Below are positions 3,289 through 61,494 of a stretch of DNA of 64,000 nucleotides, piece after piece. The translations under genes and the position numbers were made by a program. Numbering within the stretch: the first letter of the stretch is position 1; every line of letters begins with the position of its first letter. The notes beneath the pieces were generated by a model, which worked only from the letters and a program-made list of their open reading frames with translations, was not told the origin of the DNA and searched no databases. The stretch comes from Bacteroidales bacterium (GTDB lineage: Bacteria > Bacteroidota > Bacteroidia > Bacteroidales > F082), in the NCBI GenBank assembly GCA_017395365.1, contig JAFPUN010000012.1:19330-83329 (forward strand). Reading direction: 5' to 3'.

Positions 3289-5042
3289 AGAAAGCCATCT
3301 TCAATCCCGATGACTGGAATGCCGCCGTGGCTTCGTCGGCCAGGCACACTGATGTTGAAGCTTTGGTGAGTGCCGTCGAGGCCTCGGGCATCGACATCAC
3401 GGCTGCCTATTCCGACTGGCTGGCCATCGGCTTCGCCTTAGTGTCGGAGCTGGGCGAGGAAGGGCGGTCGTTCTTCCACCGCCTCAGCCGCTTCTATCCG
3501 GGTTATGACATGGCCGAGGCCGACCGGCAATATACGGCCTGCCTGCGTGACGGGAGCCGAGAAATCAGCATCGCCACGCTGTTCCATATCGCCGAGACGC
3601 ACGGCATCGTTATCCCCGTTTCCTCACGAAAACGATGTGAGGAAGTTGAGGAAGATGAGGAAAACGAGGAAGCGGGGCGGTCAAAATCGGTCAAGACCGA
3701 CACCTTCTCGCAGGCTGTCGGCGGCCAACTGCCCGACATCCTGAAGCGCATCGTGGCCGATGCCGTGTCGGCGGTGGATGCTGACCTGCTTATCCTTGGC
3801 TCGCTCACCGTGTTTTCAGCCTGTCTGCCGAATGTGTACGGCGTGTATGACAGGAGGGAGGTGTTTTCGAACCTCTTCCTCTATGTCACGGCCAGCGCCT
3901 CGGCAGGCAAGGGGCGGTTGTCGCTGTGCCGACACTTGGCCGCGCCGCTGCATCGGGAGCTGAGGGAGCAGTACCGCAAGTCGATGGAGCGGTACAAGCA
4001 GGAGCAGCTGCAGTATGTCATGAACAAGAAGAAGGGCGAGGCTTCCGAGCCTGAGGAGCCGCCGTTTCTGACGCTGTTCATCCCGGCCAACAGCACGGCG
4101 ACGGTGGTCTATCAGACTCTGTCGCAGAACAACGGCGTGGGGCTGCTTTTCGAGACCGAGGGCGACACGTTGGCCAATGCTTTCAACTCGGACCTGGGGA
4201 ACTACTCGGACGGCTTCAGGAAGGCGTTTCACCATGAGATGATTTCGTACCTTCGGAAGAAGGATCGCGAGTATGTGGAAATCACGAAGCCGAAGTTTTC
4301 GGCCATCCTGTCGGGCACGCCGGAGCAGGTTTTCAACCTGATCCCTTCGGCGGAGAACGGGCTTTTCAGTCGCTTCATCTTCTACGTGATGCCGACGGAG
4401 ATCGTTTGGCACGACATGTTTGACGCCTCGGAGGGGCCCACTGCCGACGAGCTGTTCAAGGAAATAGGCAGGGACTTCTACCAGTTCCACAAGCTGCTGG
4501 GTGCGCAGCCTATCCGCTTCACCCTTCCGCAGGAGCAGCAGCGGAGGTTCAACGCTTTCTTTTCGAAGGCACAGGCGGAGTATGCCGCGCTGTTCGGCAA
4601 CGACATCATCGCCTCGGTGCGCCGACTGGGGCTGATACTCTTTCGCTTCGCGATGATCCTGACAGTGCTCCGACAGATGGATGAGGGCGCTTTTCCGTTG
4701 GCTCTTGATGACGGGAAGGAGGCTTTGCTGGTCTGCACGGACGCTGATTTCGACACGGCCTTGGCGATGGTGAAGGTGCTGCTGCAGCACACGGTGAGGG
4801 TGTTTCAGGCCTTGCCGCGCAGGGCTGAGCGGCGCTTCAGGCAGGACCGTCGGCAGCGGACGGAGAGTTTTATGCAGACTTTCCTTGCCGCCTTGCCCGA
4901 TGCGTTCAGCCGTTCGGGCTACCTTCAGACGGCTGCCGACATGGGCATCAGTGAGAAGACGGCTGAGCGGTACATCGCGGAGCTGTGCAGGTCGGGGATG
5001 CTGGAGCATCCGGCCAGTGGGCAGTATGTGAAACCATCATGA
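3285..5042 (+). CDS. PriCT-2 plus DUF3987 helicase-like protein (primase-associated)
   Basis: N-terminal SDWLAIGFALVSELGEEGRSFFHRLSRFYPGYD (PriCT-2-like), an acidic linker, then a large DUF3987-like domain (VTASASAGKGRLS). ATGA overlap with the primase-like gene. Confidence 0.7.
   Translation: MKKAIFNPDDWNAAVASSARHTDVEALVSAVEASGIDITAAYSDWLAIGFALVSELGEEGRSFFHRLSRFYPGYDMAEADRQYTACLRDGSREISIATLFHIAETHGIVIPVSSRKRCEEVEEDEENEEAGRSKSVKTDTFSQAVGGQLPDILKRIVADAVSAVDADLLILGSLTVFSACLPNVYGVYDRREVFSNLFLYVTASASAGKGRLSLCRHLAAPLHRELREQYRKSMERYKQEQLQYVMNKKKGEASEPEEPPFLTLFIPANSTATVVYQTLSQNNGVGLLFETEGDTLANAFNSDLGNYSDGFRKAFHHEMISYLRKKDREYVEITKPKFSAILSGTPEQVFNLIPSAENGLFSRFIFYVMPTEIVWHDMFDASEGPTADELFKEIGRDFYQFHKLLGAQPIRFTLPQEQQRRFNAFFSKAQAEYAALFGNDIIASVRRLGLILFRFAMILTVLRQMDEGAFPLALDDGKEALLVCTDADFDTALAMVKVLLQHTVRVFQALPRRAERRFRQDRRQRTESFMQTFLAALPDAFSRSGYLQTAADMGISEKTAERYIAELCRSGMLEHPASGQYVKPS
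3615..3674 (+). repeat. Copy A of hairpin plus GAGGAA-N3 repeat segment (inside the DUF3987 gene linker)
   Basis: ttcctcac-gaaaacgat-gtgaggaa hairpin followed by four gaggaa units at 9-nt spacing. An inverted homologous copy lies at 5546-5641. Confidence 0.8.
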
Positions 5043-14719: not shown

Positions 14720-14739
14720 AATTCAATAATAATGCACCG

Positions 14740-14747
14740 CAAAAATA
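14740..14747 (-). promoter_or_regulatory. -7 box (TAttTTTG) for the tolC-efflux operon
   Basis: Plus strand caaaaata, 21 nt upstream of the start at 14719. Confidence 0.45.
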
Positions 14748-14800
14748 GAAAAAAGGGGTTACGAAAAAAATGAAAAAATTGTATTCTTTCAAGTTTTTTG

Positions 14801-14808
14801 TATTTTTG
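14801..14808 (+). promoter_or_regulatory. -7 box TAttTTTG for aqpZ
   Basis: Divergent intergenic region, 87 nt upstream of the ATG at 14895. Confidence 0.45.
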
Positions 14809-14894
14809 CGGTATCCAAAAGAATATGGTCGTATATAGTTTTGTTGACAAAAAGAAAACCAATTAACTTATAACTAACTAAAAATTAAACAGTT

Positions 14895-17678: not shown

Positions 17679-18959
17679 ATGGCTGGTGTATACATCCATA
17701 TTCCTTTCTGCAACTCGAAATGCGCCTATTGCGGGTTCTATTCGCTGCCTTCCTTGAAGCTGAAAGATCGCTTCTTGGAGGCTTTGAAAGCGGAGATTGT
17801 GGAAAGAAAGGATTACCTTCAGCGTGGGCCTCATTGCGGGCTTGACCCGCAATCCCCTACGCTGAAGGGCAATCACGATATGCCACCCATCAACACCATC
17901 TATTTCGGTGGCGGCACGCCTTCCTTACTATCCATAAAGGAAATCAGCGAGCTGCTACATCTTATTAAGGAGACGTACCCCATCGCCGAAAACGCTGAAA
18001 TCACCCTTGAAGCCAATCCCGACACGCTGTCGTTGGAATACCTCGAAAGTTTGCGACAACGTGGAGTCAACAGGCTCAGCATCGGCATTCAAAGCTTTTT
18101 CGACAATGACTTGAAGTATCTAAGCCGTCGCCATGACTCACATCACGCCCGACAATGTATCGATTGGGCCAAACAAGCGGGCTTCAATAACATCAGCATT
18201 GATTTGATTTATGGTCTGCCTACCTCAAACGCCGAGCAATGGAACCGCAACCTTGACCTCTTTTTTGCATTGAACATCCCCCACCTCTCGGCTTATGCAC
18301 TCACCCTAGAGCCCAATGCCATTTTGACCAAACAAATCGAACTAGGAAAGGTGTATCCCGTCAACGAAGAGGATGCCTTACGTGATTATGACATCCTCTG
18401 CCAACGCGCCAAGGAAAACGGTTATCTGCATTATGAGATCTCCAATTTCTGCCGTCGTGAGATGCATTCGAAGCACAACGCCAGCTATTGGTTCGGAACA
18501 CCATACATAGGCTTCGGGCCTTCAGCACATTCCTTCGATGGCACTTCACGGCAATGGAATGTTTCCAGCGTTGAACGCTATTGTGAGGTTTTCTCTACTG
18601 CATCACGTCATTGCGAGGAGGAACGACGAAGCAATCCAGACAAAGAGCTTCAGTATCTGGATTGCTTCGTTCCTCGCAATGACGCAAAGCGCGTCCAGGA
18701 TTCGGTGTTGGAAGTCGAACAATTAACCCTAGAGCAGCAATACGACGAATATGTCATGCTCCGCTTGCGCACCCATTGGGGCATCGACCTGAAGTGGCTG
18801 AAACGTGAAATGGGCGAACGTTTCTCCACCTATTGCGAACAACATGCCCAGCCCTTGATTGCCCAAGGCAGGCTCTCACAAACACGCGAATTCCTCTACC
18901 TCACCGACCAACAGATGCTCTTCGCCGACGGCGTGGCAGAAGAATTGTTTTGGGAATAA
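17679..18959 (+). CDS. hemW: Radical SAM heme chaperone HemW (HemN-like), carrying two in-frame palindromic-repeat insertions
   Basis: YIHIPFCNSKCAYCGF radical-SAM CxxxCxxC, GGGTPS, HemN_C-like end. ATG at 17679, one nt after the upstream stop. About 50 aa longer than my recollection of typical HemW length. Confidence 0.85.
   Translation: MAGVYIHIPFCNSKCAYCGFYSLPSLKLKDRFLEALKAEIVERKDYLQRGPHCGLDPQSPTLKGNHDMPPINTIYFGGGTPSLLSIKEISELLHLIKETYPIAENAEITLEANPDTLSLEYLESLRQRGVNRLSIGIQSFFDNDLKYLSRRHDSHHARQCIDWAKQAGFNNISIDLIYGLPTSNAEQWNRNLDLFFALNIPHLSAYALTLEPNAILTKQIELGKVYPVNEEDALRDYDILCQRAKENGYLHYEISNFCRREMHSKHNASYWFGTPYIGFGPSAHSFDGTSRQWNVSSVERYCEVFSTASRHCEEERRSNPDKELQYLDCFVPRNDAKRVQDSVLEVEQLTLEQQYDEYVMLRLRTHWGIDLKWLKREMGERFSTYCEQHAQPLIAQGRLSQTREFLYLTDQQMLFADGVAEELFWE
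17833..17853 (+). repeat. Mini-palindrome attgcggg-cttgac-ccgcaat inside hemW
   Basis: 8-bp stem. The flanks tcATTGC...GCAATcc match the arm ends of the 77-nt element at 18607 and 59229. Confidence 0.7.
18607..18683 (+). repeat. 77-nt palindromic element (gtcattgcgagg...agcaatccag arms), in frame inside hemW
   Basis: The long arm at 18607-18639 pairs with the short arm at 18657-18683. The same element occurs intergenically at 59229-59304 in the opposite orientation. Confidence 0.85.
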
Positions 18960-19003
18960 GTAGATTTTTGCTTCCAAACCTATCAACCTACCATTTTCTT
19001 TCC

Positions 19004-19011
19004 TATTTTTG
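19004..19011 (+). promoter_or_regulatory. -7 box TAttTTTG for the C69 dipeptidase gene
   Basis: 82 nt upstream of the ATG at 19093. The repeat element at 19037-19060 lies in the predicted leader. Confidence 0.45.
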
Positions 19012-19036
19012 AATTTCCAAATAACCTTGACAGCAA

Positions 19037-19060
19037 GGTCCCTGAGCCAGTCGAAGGGCC
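19037..19060 (-). repeat. Copy of the ggcccttcgacaggctcagggacc repeat family
   Basis: ggtccctgagccagtcgaagggcc is the reverse complement of the family consensus with one change. Confidence 0.75.
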
Positions 19061-19092
19061 GATATTATAGAACCATCAATTAATAAAATAAC

Positions 19093-33952: not shown

Positions 33953-35614
33953 ATGGACAAGAAGAAAGCGAAGAAGGAGAAAAGGACGCAAGGTCCTGCT
34001 CCAAAACTACGAACTCGCAATATTTTATTGGCTGTTTTAAGTGGCGGCTTGCTGACAGCGGCATGGCCCACATGGGGTGTGGTGCCACTGATATTCATTG
34101 GATTCGTACCGCTGCTGCTTATCGAAGACCGTGCAGCAAAAGGCGACGGTGGCAAGGTATTTTGGCTCGGTTTCCTCGCCTTCTTGATTTGGAACACGGC
34201 CACAACCTGGTGGGTATGGAATGCCACACCGGCCGCCATCATGGCTTGGGCTCTCAATGCCATCTTCATGGCCACTGTTTTTTGGCTGTTTCACCTCACG
34301 AAAAAGAAAGTGTGCAACAACCCATGGGGTAACTTCTTCCTTATTCCATATTGGATGGCCTTTGAGATGCTTACCTACATTTGGGCTGTCAAATGGCCTT
34401 GGCTCAACTTGGGTGGTGTTTTTTCAAGCCAAGTCAGCTGGGTGCAATGGTACGAATACACGGGCTTGGCCGGGGGAACTCTGTGGGTTTTGTTAGTCAA
34501 TATCTTGATTGCCAACATTCTTCAATTCTTTAGTTCAAAAGAAGCTAAACCTATCTTAATCAGCATTGGTCTTGAGGCCATCATCCTCATCGTGCCTATC
34601 GTCATCAGCAAGTCGATGTATAAGCACTACGAGGAACAAGGCGAGGACACTGAGGTCATCGTCGTGCAGCAAAACTGCGACCCATGGAACGAGCAGTTCG
34701 ACAGTGAGTTCTATGACCAAGTGATTCAAAACAACATTAATCTCTCGCTGCCTCTGGTGACCCCAAACACGCGGTTTATCGTCAGTTCAGAATCGGCCAT
34801 CCAAGAAGGCATCTGGCTTCATGAACTTGATAAATCCAAGGCCCTCAAAACACTGCATGGGTATGTCAGTCGTTTCCCCCAGTTGGCTTTCGTCATTGGA
34901 GGCACCACCTATGAATGGGTGCCCAAAGGCATGGAAGACGATTTCCCGGCGCGGCGGGTGGGTGAAACCGACAAATACTACTATTGCCACAACTCAGCCT
35001 TGCTCATCGACAGCGTCGGCTTGCAGCACCGCAACAAGTCGCACCTTACGCCCGCGGTGGAAGCCATCCCCGAGTGGATGGGATTCTTGCGCAACTTCAG
35101 CCTCACCATGGGCATCGCACGTGGCACACTGAAAGGAGATCCAGAATCGAAAGTGATGACATTCGGCGACCATAAGATTGGGGCTGCCATCTGCTACGAG
35201 TCGGCCTTTGGCGAATATGTCAGCTCTTTCACCAAGAAAGGCGCCGACCTTCTCTTTGTCATCACCAATGATGGCTGGTGGGGCCACACGCCCGGCTATC
35301 GCCAGCACTTTGAGTTCTCAAAGTTACGGGCCATAGAAAGTCGCCGTTGCATCGCCCGTTCTGCCAATACGGGACGCTCCGGCTTCATCAACCAACGCGG
35401 TGACGTATTGCAGCAGACCCATTACTGGGTGCCTGATGCCATACGCGCCACTTTGAAAGCCAACACCAGCGTTACTTTCTATGCAAAACACGGTGATTAT
35501 CTCAGCCGCATTGCGGTTTACCTCACTTTTGTCATGCTCATCACATTAATTGCCAAGACATTCATTGATCTTGGCAAGAATAAGAAAACGGCCAAAACAG
35601 CCAAGAAAAAATGA
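33953..35614 (+). CDS. lnt: Apolipoprotein N-acyltransferase
   Basis: Multiple TM segments, then a CN-hydrolase domain with AAICYESAFGEY. ATG at 33953; the track start at 33908 is TTG and lies upstream of the promoter box. Confidence 0.85.
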   Translation: MDKKKAKKEKRTQGPAPKLRTRNILLAVLSGGLLTAAWPTWGVVPLIFIGFVPLLLIEDRAAKGDGGKVFWLGFLAFLIWNTATTWWVWNATPAAIMAWALNAIFMATVFWLFHLTKKKVCNNPWGNFFLIPYWMAFEMLTYIWAVKWPWLNLGGVFSSQVSWVQWYEYTGLAGGTLWVLLVNILIANILQFFSSKEAKPILISIGLEAIILIVPIVISKSMYKHYEEQGEDTEVIVVQQNCDPWNEQFDSEFYDQVIQNNINLSLPLVTPNTRFIVSSESAIQEGIWLHELDKSKALKTLHGYVSRFPQLAFVIGGTTYEWVPKGMEDDFPARRVGETDKYYYCHNSALLIDSVGLQHRNKSHLTPAVEAIPEWMGFLRNFSLTMGIARGTLKGDPESKVMTFGDHKIGAAICYESAFGEYVSSFTKKGADLLFVITNDGWWGHTPGYRQHFEFSKLRAIESRRCIARSANTGRSGFINQRGDVLQQTHYWVPDAIRATLKANTSVTFYAKHGDYLSRIAVYLTFVMLITLIAKTFIDLGKNKKTAKTAKKK

Positions 35615-36717
35615 GCGAAAAGACCTGCACAGATACACTCACTCATACCTCGCTCGGTATGACATGCAGGGAACGCCCCATACAGTTGTCGTTAGGTCCC
35701 TTCCAAGGTATCACTGACGCGCCCTTCCGCAATGTGTTCAAGCGGCATTTCGGTGGCATCGACAAATACTATACCCCTTTCTTTACAGGCATCCACAAGG
35801 AGGAACACGCCAAAAACCTGCAAGGCGAGGAAATCGACCCGCACTGTAATGACGTTGAGACACTGACCCCGCAGATTCTTAGTACAGATGCAGAAGAAAT
35901 CCTGCGCTTCGCCAAACAATGTCAACAACTTGGTTACAAGGAAATCAACCTCAACATGGGCTGTCCCTTCCCGAGGGTGGCCAATAAAAAACGTGGCAGT
36001 GGCCTCCTGCCCTACCCCGACAAGGTGGATGCCATGCTGGAGCGCATTTTCGAAGAAATCGACATCAAGTTCAGTGTGAAATGCCGCTTGGGGTATTTCA
36101 GCCCGGAGGAGATTGATGCCATAATTCCAATCTTCAACAAATATCCTATAAGCGAATTAATCATCCATCCTCGCATCGGCAAGCAGCTTTACAAAGGAGA
36201 AGCTGATGTGGAACGCTTTAAGGCTTTAATTCCTTATATTAATGCACCTTTGGTATATAATGGGGATATTGTTTCGGTGGAAAGCTTTGTAAGGATTAAT
36301 GGTATTCTGAATGACGGTCCTTCGACAGGCTCAGGAGCCTGCAAAACTGTTGAGCAGTTCATGCTCGGACGAGGCATTTTGGCAAATCCGTTCTTGGCTG
36401 AACAGATTAAAAACAACATAGCGGACGCATGCAATGCGTCCCTACAGGGGCAACCCGTTGGTACACACAACGTGTGCCCTCCCAACCACGACAAAACGGA
36501 ACGTCTGCATAATTACGTCCTCGACCTGTATGAAGACCGCCTGCACCATGCCGGTGGCAGCCCGAAGGTGCTGGGGCGCATGAAGGAGCTATGGTCGTAT
36601 CTGATGAACAGCTTTGAAGAGCCTCAGGTGGTTTGGCGAAAGATAAAGAAGCTTAATGCACTGAAGGAATACGAGGATGCCGTCGAGGCCATCTTCAAAG
36701 AGATTCCAATCAAATGA
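35611..36717 (+). CDS. tRNA-dihydrouridine synthase family protein, with two in-frame repeat-derived insertions
   Basis: LGPFQGITDAPFRNVFKRHFG, EINLNMGCPFPRVANKKRGSGLL, YNGDI...MLGRGILANPFL. ATGA overlap with lnt. Confidence 0.8.
   Translation: MSEKTCTDTLTHTSLGMTCRERPIQLSLGPFQGITDAPFRNVFKRHFGGIDKYYTPFFTGIHKEEHAKNLQGEEIDPHCNDVETLTPQILSTDAEEILRFAKQCQQLGYKEINLNMGCPFPRVANKKRGSGLLPYPDKVDAMLERIFEEIDIKFSVKCRLGYFSPEEIDAIIPIFNKYPISELIIHPRIGKQLYKGEADVERFKALIPYINAPLVYNGDIVSVESFVRINGILNDGPSTGSGACKTVEQFMLGRGILANPFLAEQIKNNIADACNASLQGQPVGTHNVCPPNHDKTERLHNYVLDLYEDRLHHAGGSPKVLGRMKELWSYLMNSFEEPQVVWRKIKKLNALKEYEDAVEAIFKEIPIK
36316..36339 (+). repeat. Copy of the ccttcgacaggctcagg repeat family inside dus (encodes GPSTGSGA)
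   Basis: ggtccttcgacaggctcaggagcc compared with the intergenic copies at 47734 and 19037. Confidence 0.7.
36423..36445 (+). repeat. GACGC-type hairpin ggacgcat-gca-atgcgtcc-ctac inside dus
   Basis: 8-bp stem. Same architecture as the intergenic gtagagacgcga-taaa-tcgcgtctctac at 61467. Confidence 0.65.
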
Positions 36718-47733: not shown

Positions 47734-47759
47734 GGGCCCTTCGACAGGCTCAGGGACCC
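47734..47759 (+). repeat. Copy of the gggcccttcgacaggctcagggaccc repeat family (between dtd and holA)
   Basis: Near-consensus copy in the 47-nt spacer. Confidence 0.75.
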
Positions 47760-52779: not shown

Positions 52780-52866
52780 CACGCAGAAATCGCAGAACTA
52801 TGGGAAACGCGAAGCGACGCAAAGTTTGCGTCCGGTAGGTTCAGCGCATTCTGCGTATTCTGCGTG
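52780..52866. repeat. Nested palindrome in the convergent spacer (cacgcagaaatcgcagaa ... ttctgcgtattctgcgtg, with inner gacgcaaa-g-tttgcgtc)
   Basis: The 18-nt outer arms pair with two mismatches. The inner 8-bp hairpin is at 52816-52832. Confidence 0.75.
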
Positions 52867-57653: not shown

Positions 57654-59213
57654 TTAATCATATTGAACCTTTTGCAAGTAATACACCGTTCGTCTCGGCT
57701 TGGGTTGCGTACTGTTTTGGATGATTTGCGAACCGTAGATGAGAAAACGGTTGTCGTACCAAGGAGTGAGTTGGGCGAAATACTCGTCTTCCACATAATC
57801 GGCACCATAGATGGGAGCCAGCTTCGCCTCCTGCAGGTTCATCAAAACCTGACCTTGAGCATCAAAAGCAGTGTATCTTAAACGGTTGTAATAGGGCGAA
57901 GCCACCACCAGTTCGTCAAAACACACCCCTTCTCCCGCATGGGGAAAGAGATCGTATGTCAGTTCATTGTCGAACTTCACCGACTGCTGCCACTGCAATT
58001 GTCCATTGGAGTCGAAGGCCAGCAGCACTTCGCTGAAGAAGTCGTAGCCATCGAAGATGGTGTAGGTGTAAGGATAGCCGCCATAATAACCGTAATAGCC
58101 ATAGTTCATGCGTGTCTCGGTGTGGTAATAGGGCATGAACGCTTCCAGGGCGAAGACAGTCAAATCGCCAAAATCAGTCAAACGGGGTGTCAGAAACTGG
58201 AAAGCAATCTCCGACAAGGTGGTATTCTCTTTTTTCTGCTTCTTTAAACGCTCCTCACGCAAACGCACCCGATCGGAGGCGGTCAAGGCATGTTCTATCT
58301 CGGGCATGTCCTTAAAGAGGTAGATATGGCTCTCTGGGGATGAAGACAAGAAGCGCAACCATACCACGCCGAGGCTCTCTTTGTCGAAGTTCTCCGTCAC
58401 GCCTTCAAGATTGACCTTACGGCCCATCTCGCGTTCCAATGTGCCGATAACGACAAGATGACGGCTCTCGTCGAAACGAAAGCCCATACGGCCCAAGGAA
58501 GCGCTGGGAATGTTCTCGTAGCGATAGCTGCCTTGCAAATCCCCAGTGGGGGAATAAAGCATGAATGAAGTCGACACGAAACGCTTGTTCTCATATTCCT
58601 TGGCAGCCACCACAAAACAGCGTTCTTGCTGGAAAGCATCCGTTTGAAACAACACATTGCTACCCGTTGAAGCAGGAGTCACCATGCGGTATTGGTTGTT
58701 CGCCAGGTTGTAGAAATACAACACGCCATTGCCTGCTTTGTTGTTCACAGCCATCATCATCGTGCCCTTAACAACCTCAACTGACAGCGGCACTGACTTT
58801 TCAGCCCATTTGTTCCAGAAGGTCTGATAACTGCCATTCTCCTTGTCGAATGAGACTACGATAAAATCGAGTGTGTCGGCGGCTTTTTTGTTGCCGTCGT
58901 TGACGAAGAGGAAGGCCGCAAAACGGCCGTCGCTACCCGAAGCCGAGAACTTGACCTTTTCGGGCAGGGGTATCAAATCGTTACGGGTCTCGTAGAGGGT
59001 ACTGTCGAGACACGCGAAACTCCACAGCCGATGTTTGTCCTTGTCGGTCTTGTCGGTTTCGTAGGCCATGATGCCATCAGATTGCCCAATGGCCTGAAAA
59101 TGGCAATCTTGTTCCTTGTTCCAACGACTCACCTCATAGCGCACGGGCTCCACCTGTTGGGCAGAGACCCAACTGGCAAGGAACAGGGATGCTATGAGAA
59201 AGAGCTTTTTCAT
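57654..59213 (-). CDS. Hypothetical secreted protein
   Basis: Signal peptide MKKLFLIASLFLASWVSAQQ. No recognised domain. Confidence 0.6.
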   Translation of the reverse strand: MKKLFLIASLFLASWVSAQQVEPVRYEVSRWNKEQDCHFQAIGQSDGIMAYETDKTDKDKHRLWSFACLDSTLYETRNDLIPLPEKVKFSASGSDGRFAAFLFVNDGNKKAADTLDFIVVSFDKENGSYQTFWNKWAEKSVPLSVEVVKGTMMMAVNNKAGNGVLYFYNLANNQYRMVTPASTGSNVLFQTDAFQQERCFVVAAKEYENKRFVSTSFMLYSPTGDLQGSYRYENIPSASLGRMGFRFDESRHLVVIGTLEREMGRKVNLEGVTENFDKESLGVVWLRFLSSSPESHIYLFKDMPEIEHALTASDRVRLREERLKKQKKENTTLSEIAFQFLTPRLTDFGDLTVFALEAFMPYYHTETRMNYGYYGYYGGYPYTYTIFDGYDFFSEVLLAFDSNGQLQWQQSVKFDNELTYDLFPHAGEGVCFDELVVASPYYNRLRYTAFDAQGQVLMNLQEAKLAPIYGADYVEDEYFAQLTPWYDNRFLIYGSQIIQNSTQPKPRRTVYYLQKVQYD

Positions 59214-59228
59214 CTTGTTGTCACTACC

Positions 59229-59304
59229 GTCATTGCGAGGAACGAAGCAATCCAGAGAGTCAGCTTATCCCCTGGATTGCTTCGTCGTTCCTCCTCGCAA
59301 TGAC
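59229..59304 (-). repeat. Second copy of the 77-nt gtcattgcgagg...agcaatccag palindromic element (intergenic)
   Basis: Short arm 59229-59255 and long arm 59272-59304, inverted relative to the hemW copy. The loop sequences differ. Confidence 0.85.
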
Positions 59305-59319
59305 GCTATCGCGTCTGTA

Positions 59320-60975
59320 TTAGAACTTCACGAACTTCGCAACAGCCGTCATGCCGTTGGCATAGCGGAAGTTGACGAAATACACGCCGTTTTCGAGCTC
59401 GCTCACATTGAGTTGGGCATTGCCGGCTGCGACATTCATCTCGCGCACCATACGGCCCGTCACATCGAAGATGTTGATCTGGGCATCGCTGTCCAAAGTG
59501 AACGACACCTGCTCACGGGCAGGATTGGGATAAAGGCTGACACAAGCCATCTCATTATCGTTGACGGCAGCCGTGAACTTACCCCACACCTTCACGTAAT
59601 CAATTTCCCATGAGGAAGCAGCTTCGTCAGAACTTGTATAGATGAACGCGATATAGAAGCTTCCATTTTCAGCATAATCGATCACATTCAATTCGCCCGA
59701 TTCAACCCATTCGTAGTCACCCGTTGAATAGTCGAAAGCGTCGGTGATATCCTCCCACTCGAAGTCGCTGGGGTCACTTTGTCCATCATAATCCATGGAG
59801 ATGGCCACGCGCAGCGGGTCGCCGTCGAACTTCATTGCCGTACGGAACTCCATGAAAATATCGGTGAAAGTCAGATCCGGAACTTCCACATAACCAATCA
59901 GCCAGTCTTCATTCTGATGGCTTGCCTGTTCAGCATAACCATTCATATTGGCATAGGTCGTGCCCTGATGAGAACCTTGGTGCCAGCCTTGATCGCCGTA
60001 GGCATCGTAGGCAAAGAACACGCCAAGATCTTCATCGAATTCTTCATAGAGCAGAATGTAGACTTCTTCCGTAGTAGCTGTTTCCGTAGGATAGGTGCCA
60101 TCGGTCTTATAGTCAATGGCAGCACCGCTGTTGGTGTAGGGGAAGATGGCGAAATGATAAGTAACGCCACCTTGCAAGCCACTGAATGTCACAGTCTGAG
60201 CACCGTAATTCACATTTTTGGCCAAATCGCTATCGGGAACGGGAGTACCGTCGGTAGGAACAGTGATGTTGCCCGTGGAGGCCAGAACCAAGTACTTGGA
60301 AGGCAGTTGTTCACCGATGGCGTCTTCCCAGACGAGATAGACATCAGTGCCATCTACCAAAGCCTCAAATTCAGTGGGATAGTTGCTCGGTTCGGGGTCG
60401 GGATCACTACTACCACCAGCCTTGTACAAGCTGACGCGAGTGTCGATATTCGACGTTTCGGCATAGCAGCTGAACAAAGGAGCATTGTTTGAGGTGTTGG
60501 GGTTGAAACGCATGTTGTTGCGCTCATTTTCGCCTTGGGCTACCACCTCAACCGTACCATCGCCGTTAAAGGTGATGCTCCATTGACCGTTGGCATCGAG
60601 GGTGGTTTGAGTCTTCAAATTGTTGCTGCTGCTACTTGCGGCATAAAGATAACCGCCTTTGGCCTCGTCGAAGAAGGTCCAAGCACCAGTGCTTCCACCC
60701 AAAGTGAACTCAAACACATCGGTTTCGCTCGTGGGATCAGTGCCAGGTGTAACGGAGATGGCATCGCCATTTTCGCTCACAACCACAGCATGACGGTTGT
60801 TCGGTTTTTGGTAACCCATAGCGAGTACGCCCAAATCTTCATAATGCGCCACGATGAGGTAGTTGGCTCCAGCCTCAAGACCTGAGGCTGAGGTGACCTG
60901 TGTGTAGGTCGTTTGTGCGATGCCGCTCACCGAAAGGAGCAGCATGGCAACTAATGAGAATAAAACTTTTTTCAT
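59320..60975 (-). CDS. Secreted protein with T9SS C-terminal sorting domain
   Basis: Signal peptide. C-terminus VSLYPNPAREQVSFTL...GVYFVNFRYANGMTAVAKFVKF. Confidence 0.75.
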   Translation of the reverse strand: MKKVLFSLVAMLLLSVSGIAQTTYTQVTSASGLEAGANYLIVAHYEDLGVLAMGYQKPNNRHAVVVSENGDAISVTPGTDPTSETDVFEFTLGGSTGAWTFFDEAKGGYLYAASSSSNNLKTQTTLDANGQWSITFNGDGTVEVVAQGENERNNMRFNPNTSNNAPLFSCYAETSNIDTRVSLYKAGGSSDPDPEPSNYPTEFEALVDGTDVYLVWEDAIGEQLPSKYLVLASTGNITVPTDGTPVPDSDLAKNVNYGAQTVTFSGLQGGVTYHFAIFPYTNSGAAIDYKTDGTYPTETATTEEVYILLYEEFDEDLGVFFAYDAYGDQGWHQGSHQGTTYANMNGYAEQASHQNEDWLIGYVEVPDLTFTDIFMEFRTAMKFDGDPLRVAISMDYDGQSDPSDFEWEDITDAFDYSTGDYEWVESGELNVIDYAENGSFYIAFIYTSSDEAASSWEIDYVKVWGKFTAAVNDNEMACVSLYPNPAREQVSFTLDSDAQINIFDVTGRMVREMNVAAGNAQLNVSELENGVYFVNFRYANGMTAVAKFVKF

Positions 60976-61466: not shown

Positions 61467-61494
61467 GTAGAGACGCGATAAATCGCGTCTCTAC
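61467..61494. repeat. Perfect 28-nt palindrome gtagagacgcga-taaa-tcgcgtctctac
   Basis: 12-bp stem between the mrp stop (61500) and the nifU start (61444). Confidence 0.85.

Follow-up and report, generated by a model that had tools for sequence, protein, structure and literature searches.

The hemW gene of a Bacteroidales bacterium (assembly GCA_017395365.1, contig JAFPUN010000012.1) raises the question of how a long DNA palindrome came to lie inside a coding sequence that has stayed open. The gene occupies positions 17679-18959 of the plus strand within the stretch of 64,000 nucleotides analysed here (the window) and encodes an intact radical SAM heme chaperone of 426 amino acids, which is recognised by its Pfam Radical_SAM and HemN_C domains and by homologues that NCBI names HemW, and which contains two in-frame repeat insertions. 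A sequence-only reading of the window had proposed that the palindrome in the downstream part of the gene is a repeated element and not ancestral coding sequence. Our results bear this out, as distant orthologues lack both inserted segments, close relatives are polymorphic for them, and the arm sequence recurs at no fewer than 120 metagenome sites and in many phyla. It is highly probable that the downstream segment belongs to a dispersed family of non-autonomous palindromic repeats, of the type of the repetitive extragenic palindromes (REPs) and the Rickettsia palindromic elements (RPEs), and that hemW carries it as an in-frame passenger.

A palindromic repeat in an intact hemW

The palindrome, as defined by sequence and fold, spans 79 nt on the plus strand (18606-18684) and bears a CGTC tag at 18606 and its complement at 18681-18684. 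It is made up of an outer stem of 14 bp (18606-18619, CGTCATTGCGAGGA, paired with 18671-18684, TCCTCGCAATGACG), a bulge of 6 nt on the 5' arm (18620-18625), an inner stem of 15 bp (18626-18640, ACGAAGCAATCCAGA, paired with 18656-18670, TCTGGATTGCTTCGT) and a loop of 15 nt (18641-18655). An extent of 77 nt (18607-18683) had been proposed previously; the arms lie where they had been placed, but the pairing continues for one base more on each side. The whole element is one inverted repeat; miniature inverted-repeat transposable elements are defined by terminal inverted repeats together with a target-site duplication. When folded as single-stranded DNA, the 79-nt palindrome reaches -33.3 kcal/mol, compared with -10.7 +/- 2.3 for shuffled sequences (z = -10), and none of 200 shuffles folded as well. 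On its right it is followed by a tail of 11 nt, CAAAGCGCGTC (18685-18695, plus strand), which is evident from the length difference between alleles: palindrome and tail together make 90 nt, the 30 codons R310-V339, which are extra with respect to alleles without the element. The inserted unit most likely comprised palindrome plus tail, at least 90 nt and not 77 nt. A degenerate left tail, CTACTGCATCA (18595-18605, plus strand), is better kept at other loci (CTGCCGCTTCG in L127 and CTCCCGCTTCG in L200) and may have been part of an original element of about 101 nt.

As had been stated from the sequence, the hemW open reading frame (ORF) runs uninterrupted from 17679 to 18959 and passes through the element, where the local translation is ...SRHCEEERRSNPDKELQYLDCFVPRNDAKRV... 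and where SNPDKELQYLDCFVPR is an example of a peptide spanning the insert. The gene stayed open because the inserted length is a multiple of three and the element, read in the frame of hemW, is free of stop codons. Four of the six frames of the window copy lack a stop, and as many open frames were found in only 169 of 5000 shuffled sequences. The core of hemW is under strong purifying selection. Outside the inserts, the ratio of nonsynonymous to synonymous substitutions (dN/dS) between the window allele and five others is 0.07-0.10, with dS up to 1.27, and the radical SAM CxxxCxxC and GGGTPS motifs are intact in the product, in agreement with the earlier view of an intact gene and not a pseudogene. 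The insert had been assigned to the C-terminal HemN_C region, but the Pfam match to HemN_C covers amino acids 349-414 and the insert (amino acids 310-339) lies in the linker just before it. An AlphaFold model of HemW, obtained with 134 sequences, has a mean predicted local distance difference test score (pLDDT) of 90.7 and weak segments only at residues 46-70 and 311-341, which are the two inserts, with pLDDT <50 at 327-341. Because these are the only low-confidence segments of an otherwise confident model, both inserts are likely to be disordered surface loops, the outcome for which structure prediction had been suggested as a check.

The upstream in-frame insertion (17816-17868, plus strand) accounts for 19 extra residues and is bounded by a 13-bp outer inverted repeat (17816-17828 and 17856-17868). 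Enclosed by this repeat is a single REP unit (17829-17857, plus strand) of the form CCTC-ATTGCGGG-CTTGA-CCCGCAAT-CCCC, in which the tag CCTC is followed by an 8-bp stem, ATTGCGGG/CCCGCAAT, closed by the 5-nt loop CTTGA, and by the tail CCCC. Folding gave z = -7.8 for the whole upstream element and z = -4.2 for the single unit. The insertion is missing in L004/P0042.

Other identities of the downstream hairpin were considered. A known RNA family was rejected since all Rfam matches to the element were sub-threshold: nothing was found at the gathering threshold, and at loose E-values only generic miRNA-precursor hairpins appeared. An intrinsic terminator was rejected for the hemW copy because it lies inside the ORF and no T-run follows the hairpin. 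An integron attC site, considered for its bulged imperfect palindrome, was rejected by inspection, the ends being CGTCATT/AATGACG and not attC core sites. A full-text literature search for the arm sequence gave unrelated primers only.

A search for HemW relatives among 1.84 billion representative proteins gave 150 representative relatives that are mostly 370-385 amino acids long and whose alignment to the query is interrupted at both insert positions. When HemW was aligned with 11 distant orthologues (45-49% identity), neither segment was present in them. These orthologues have about 376-378 residues as against 426 in the window, and the 49 extra residues are the sum of 19 upstream and 30 downstream, as anticipated when some 50 extra residues had been ascribed to the two inserts. 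Among close homologues (120 cluster representatives, 79-99% identity, mostly from ENA metagenome assemblies, some of them named HemW of 'Bacteroidales bacterium'), the downstream site holds the palindrome in 86, a different 26-nt repeat in 30 and another linker in 4. At the upstream site the unit is found in forward orientation in 88, forward with a nested 30-nt insertion in 5 and flipped in 13; the site is empty in 10, with 6-residue linkers such as QGDAVN as in the distant orthologues, and 4 were left unclassified by the regular expressions used. All combinations of upstream and downstream states occur in this set. In DNA alignments the alleles differ by 90 nt at the downstream and by 57 nt at the upstream site. 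The downstream palindrome is absent from the L001/L002 alleles, and without the 90 nt a linker of 16 residues remains, which is the usual length.

Two candidate comparisons did not hold. L234 was discarded as a clean empty/filled pair since its stretch of synteny with the window does not include the element, and L057/L240 were rejected as hemW of another genus: their right flank resembled the 'empty' linker, but at that locus the repeat sits between genes, directly against the stop codon of an unrelated one.

In hemW alleles without the palindrome, the linker (VRVPEPVEGP) is formed by a member of a second small repeat family, GGTCCCTGAGCCTGTCGAAGGGCC, which occurs in the window at 19037-19060 (plus strand), 36316-36339 (minus strand) and 47735-47758 (minus strand), and in L001, L002 and L003 at 3911-3933. 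The three window copies compare with 0 expected by chance, and 17 copies were counted in the 1.8 Mb of loci examined. The copy at 36316-36339 lies in frame inside the ORF of a dihydrouridine synthase (Dus, 35611-36717), where it reads NDGPSTGSGA. Between hemW and the C69 peptidase gene, L001, L002 and L127 carry a 213-amino-acid OMP_b-brl gene on the minus strand, which is absent from the window, L125 and L126; the 133-nt spacer of the latter three (18960-19092 in the window) carries a copy of the 26-nt repeat instead. The HemW protein P0055, from L001, has 96% identity with that of the window, including the rare upstream variant SPTLKG, but in its downstream linker and the residues around it agrees with the more distant P0093 lineage, so that this hemW allele is a recombinant, a mosaic of two lineages. 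Because all combinations of states exist and P0055 is a mosaic, homologous exchange also shuffles the insert states.

Dispersed copies and inversion in place

A second copy, placed by the sequence-only reading in a non-coding spacer at 59229-59304, was confirmed on the plus strand at 59228-59315, with a palindrome of 78 nt (59228-59305; z = -10.6 for its fold) followed by the tail CTATCGCGTC (59306-59315). Its CGTC tag begins at 59228 and the complement lies at 59302-59305. It has the same stems as the hemW copy and a 6-nt bulge on the 3' arm, so that its interior is in the opposite orientation. It fills a 106-nt spacer between two minus-strand genes, 4 nt past the stop of a gene for a Por_Secre_tail protein (59320-60975) and 15 nt ahead of the start of the next ORF (57654-59213), and it would form a strong hairpin in a transcript. 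The 12-mers GTCATTGCGAGG and GAAGCAATCCAG each occur four times in the window, always at these two loci, with about 0.45 occurrences expected by chance. The element is also present in the orthologous spacer of L039 (Candidatus Limimorpha sp.), L162 and L187. In the first two, syntenic relatives with about 75% nucleotide identity, the long arm is on the opposite side, and in L187 there is a nested insertion. The right-tail sequence follows the 59-kb copy as well as the copies in L039 and L057.

Beyond the window, the pattern TCATTGCGAGG-N(2-24)-GAAGCAATCC was found in at least 120 genomes, a count that, like those of taxa, flanks and dimers given here, is taken among the matches listed. These genomes include Bradyrhizobium, Sphingomonadales, Rickettsiales, Bacteroidales, Hymenobacter, Pedobacter, Chloroflexota, Patescibacteria and others, and the common form in them is CGTCATTGCGAGGAGCGAAGCGACGAAGCAATCCAG - spacer - CTGGATTGCTTCGCTTCGCTCGCAATGACG, with the same 6-nt asymmetry between the arms as in the window copy. 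The long arm of the Bacteroidales type was found on at least 120 metagenome contigs, with 120 unique flanks. Among 123 metagenome long arms, 64 belong to dimers with a modal length of 79 nt and 57 have no partner within 110 nt. Head-to-head (HH) dimers, with the tags outside, make up both window copies, 89 of 122 sampled genome copies and 64 of 123 metagenome copies; in L234 the units are arranged with the tags inside. Copies from other genomes are tagged CGTC or TGTC, and CCAG follows GCAAT in both window arms and in most other copies. Tails of 11 nt on both sides (G.CGCTTYG | CGTC... and ...GACG | CRAAGCG.GTC) are present in 55-70% of 61 unique metagenomic dimers, which indicates a full element of about 101 nt. 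The heptamer GCGAAGC, an unusually stable DNA mini-hairpin sequence, is frequent in element tails (for example in L146, L172 and L202) and in the long arms of alphaproteobacterial copies, and it might play a part in how the element is recognised.

A copy was scored as in frame when at least 60 open codons (60-80 codons were used) lay on both sides of the whole element, and the ORFs were then searched with Pfam; a one-arm open-frame test, which flagged 61 of 125 copies, was discarded because high-GC genomes have long stop-free frames. By this measure, 9 of the 86 metagenome copies with enough flank (about 10%) are in frame in ORFs and about 90% are not. Pfam domains were confirmed in five of the in-frame ORFs (Peptidase_U32, SufS-type Aminotran_5, an AraC regulator, an S8 peptidase and a PMT_2 glycosyltransferase), and a sixth encodes a TonB-dependent-receptor-like protein in which only CarboxypepD_reg domains were confirmed. 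PurL, encountered in the genome scan (L045), is a further confirmed in-frame host. The element DNA is found in non-coding spacers and, in three reading frames, in unrelated genes. In the PurL gene, which belongs to a metagenome-assembled genome of a termite-gut Bacteroidales, the insert (L045 5290-5400) is composite and lies in frame in an interdomain linker; it reads RHCEGESPKQSRLRQAQPPLDCTAGADLQSVPT, and in it a single CGTC arm precedes fragments of two or more repeats of other types.

Comparison of alleles and orthologous sites revealed that the element inverts where it lies. At the upstream site, L125 and L126 have GGGGATTGCGGGTCAAGCCCGCAATGAGG where the window copy has its 29-nt interior, CCTCATTGCGGGCTTGACCCGCAATCCCC; the two sequences are exact reverse complements, and the 13-bp outer inverted repeat around them is the same. 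At the downstream site of L125, the 53-nt interior is the reverse complement of the window interior with 3 mismatches, the non-palindromic loop of 17 nt included. The bulge has thereby moved to the opposite arm, and the loop peptide is DTEALC in place of DKELQY. P0101 seems to have the loop alone in flipped orientation. The reading frame survives inversion because length is preserved. The arms are conserved to a degree that calls for an explanation: they differ at 1 of 62 nt between alleles that differ at 142 of 232 synonymous sites, whereas the loop differs at about 9 of 17 positions. Such conservation implies constraint at the DNA level, conversion from arm to arm or copy to copy, or recent exchange of alleles.

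A mini-element of 30 nt (ATC...GATTCG.C.ATGCGAAGCGAGTCA) interrupts four different repeat arms at precisely one point, GCAA|T (L127 2175-2204; L138 at about 81-110; L187, in the ortholog of the 59-kb spacer; and L233). One of these arms is the upstream unit of hemW, which gains the residues QIAIRRCEAS in frame. The pattern suggests that another small mobile element, with site specificity, uses the first as its target. The window also holds other intergenic inverted repeats, at 52780-52866, 14736-14812 and 61467-61494, with 18-19-nt arms 39-51 nt apart and a perfect 13-nt pair, GTAGAGACGCGAT / ATCGCGTCTCTAC; by eye, these are unrelated to the element.

Origin of the insert

In the explanation that we favour, the repeat would have inserted into the flexible linker that joins the radical SAM core to the HemN_C domain and would be translated as a disordered surface loop of 30 residues that HemW tolerates, a passenger and not an adaptation of HemW, presumably neutral for the protein. 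The usual habitat of the repeat would be a short spacer just after a stop codon, as for the 59-kb copy, with occasional tolerance in frame in flexible protein loops. Its interior would be prone to small inversions between its own inverted arms, by which only loop residues change. By analogy with RAYT/TnpA(REP) (RAYT, REP-associated tyrosine transposase) and the GTAG REPs, it may have been spread by an enzyme acting in trans that recognises the hairpin and its CGTC tag on single-stranded DNA; no candidate for such an enzyme was found here.

Several observations weigh against the passenger repeat as just described. For the downstream site, the alleles compared include no clean filled/empty pair, since those without the palindrome have an unrelated linker that itself contains another repeat. 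A purely neutral passenger should decay faster than the arms do. None of eight small ORFs in the window (133-188 amino acids) gave a Pfam match to Y1_Tnp, and a regular-expression motif scan, the only search made at this scale, detected no ORF with RAYT, HUH or Y1 motifs in the window or in about 1.8 Mb of loci; in the same scans no RAYT-like gene was seen adjoining any copy.

The lack of a transposase in the small ORFs and in the motif scan would also be expected if copies arose by gene conversion or template switching off existing copies, together with homologous exchange of hemW alleles, and if the element were no longer mobile. This account is favoured by the recombinant P0055, which joins a window-like allele to the P0093 lineage, by the occurrence of every combination of upstream and downstream states, and by the report of Di Nocera, De Gregorio & Rocco 2013 (PMC3733652) that no dedicated transposase was found for CGTC repeats, which are possibly heading to extinction. 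What it leaves unexplained are the distinct metagenome flanks, at least 120 in number, the in-frame copies in many unrelated genes, and the nested 30-nt mini-element at an identical position in four repeat arms. These three observations require some site-directed insertion process, at least in the past, and we therefore consider it unlikely that conversion and exchange replace transposition altogether.

The inverted arms could alternatively make the segment an adaptive intragenic inverton, which reversibly switches the loop of HemW, and of other host proteins, with the variation under selection. Both orientations are found at both hemW sites in all combinations among close homologues, the loop alone is apparently flipped in P0101, the arms are far better kept than synonymous sites, and recoding intragenic invertons have been shown in Bacteroides (bioRxiv 10.1101/2023.03.11.532203). 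The two orientations were seen between lineages only and never within one population, the residues affected sit in a disordered loop whose variation would bring a cytoplasmic chaperone no obvious advantage, and the element flips in a non-coding spacer too. Moreover, minute inversions associated with hairpins are a passive by-product of short inverted repeats. Selected switching of HemW is, on balance, improbable. The same small chance is given to a more general proposal, according to which REP-type palindromes in Bacteroidales would be a source of intragenic invertons that toggle encoded loops within populations and create reversible variants of many housekeeping and surface proteins, the strict conservation of the arms reflecting selection for switching or for some protein that recognises CGTC hairpins.

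Two further readings are refuted. That the segment is ancestral HemW coding sequence lost elsewhere, with an incidental palindrome, could appeal to its persistence at this site across alleles with dS of about 1.3, but it is absent from all sampled distant orthologues, the same DNA lies in non-coding spacers and in three frames of unrelated genes, and the arms are common to Alphaproteobacteria and Chloroflexota. An assembly artefact or a dead hemW gene is contradicted by the same insert in dozens of independent ENA, NCBI and JGI assemblies, by a dN/dS of about 0.08 and by the intact CxxxCxxC and GGGTPS motifs.

The locus has several implications. In-frame palindromic repeats have been documented mainly in Rickettsia and a few Proteobacteria, and uncultured Bacteroidales of gut and rumen are now added to the record. 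Within one gene, two sites provide a natural 'before and after' series of empty, forward, flipped, nested and partially deleted states, two HemW loops have been colonised by four different small repeats, and inversion of the element within a coding sequence can leave the gene unharmed. Bacteroidales, Bradyrhizobium and Chloroflexota have nearly the same arm sequence. Inserts of this kind make protein lengths too large, give rise to peptide motifs that are spuriously 'novel', and can be reported as invertons by software that relies on inverted repeats.

Comparison with known repeat systems

The closest comparison is with the CGTC-tagged REP superfamily, to which, according to PMC3733652, the Rickettsia elements RPE-4 and RPE-6 belong, so that the analogy with RPEs drawn in the sequence-only reading was apt. 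As described there, CGTC REPs occur in five phyla including Bacteroidetes, have stems of 8-9 bp that start with AT, loops of 4-5 nt, tails of the type CCA and HH dimers with the tags outside, and CCTC is listed as a variant tag, TGTC being another. The statement that no equivalent had been described for Bacteroidota consequently holds only narrowly: the superfamily is reported there in Bacteroidetes, and none of the many in-frame intragenic cases that are tabulated comes from this phylum. The features shared with the repeats of the window are CGTC at both outer ends (CCTC in the upstream unit), stems starting with AT, a CCA-like tail (CCAG or CCCC), two inverted units around a spacer that fold into one hairpin, heterodimers with unequal arms differing by 6 nt, units that also occur singly or with the tags inside (L234), a location that appears to be intergenic in most cases, beside the 3' ends of ORFs, and in frame within genes in a minority, and no associated transposase. 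With regard to copies per genome, there are two in 64 kb, and at least 120 distinct sites across metagenomes.

Judged by its sequence, the upstream unit appears to fit the definition of a CGTC-tagged REP fully, and it is nearly identical to the CGTC-3 sequence of R. palustris given in PMC3733652, where CGTC-3 reads VIAGLDPAIH and the unit here HCGLDPQSP. The 79-nt element seems to fit the definition only partly, because its arms do not fold alone, having just a 5-bp self-stem, ATTGC/GCAAT (z = -0.5 to -0.8). In the intragenic table of PMC3733652 there are no peptides of the RHCEE..SNP or LDCF..RND type.

Like RPEs, the element is a palindromic repeat lying in frame in housekeeping genes, predicted to be translated as an extra surface segment, tolerated, and absent from orthologues. 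In PMC3733652, dimers of R. conorii read SFLRKQES...LDSRFRGND, parallel to RHCEE...LDCFVPRND here, including the terminal RND, a likeness of peptides compared by eye. The element differs in phylum and arm sequence, it is shorter than classical RPE-1, and inversion in situ is demonstrated here. It would be more apt to say that it behaves like an RPE than to assign it to that family.

With the REPIN/RAYT systems, in which pairs of REP units are thought to move as single-stranded hairpins, the element shares inverted pairs of short palindromic units that form a long hairpin with a bulge. Bacteroidetes have RAYTs of subclasses 2.4 and 2.6, and the structured repeats that go with them are atypical (PMC6006769). 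The differences are the tag, which is GTAG in REPINs and CGTC here, and the cognate RAYT, none having been detected by the regular-expression scan or by Pfam on the small ORFs.

Finally, the recoding intragenic invertons demonstrated in Bacteroides (Chanin et al., bioRxiv 10.1101/2023.03.11.532203) resemble the hemW inserts in that a segment contained entirely within a gene, between inverted repeats, can be inverted, keeps the frame in both orientations and recodes a few residues. In hemW, unlike in those invertons, the orientations are fixed differences between lineages, and the DNA that inverts is a dispersed repeat and not a locus-specific switch.

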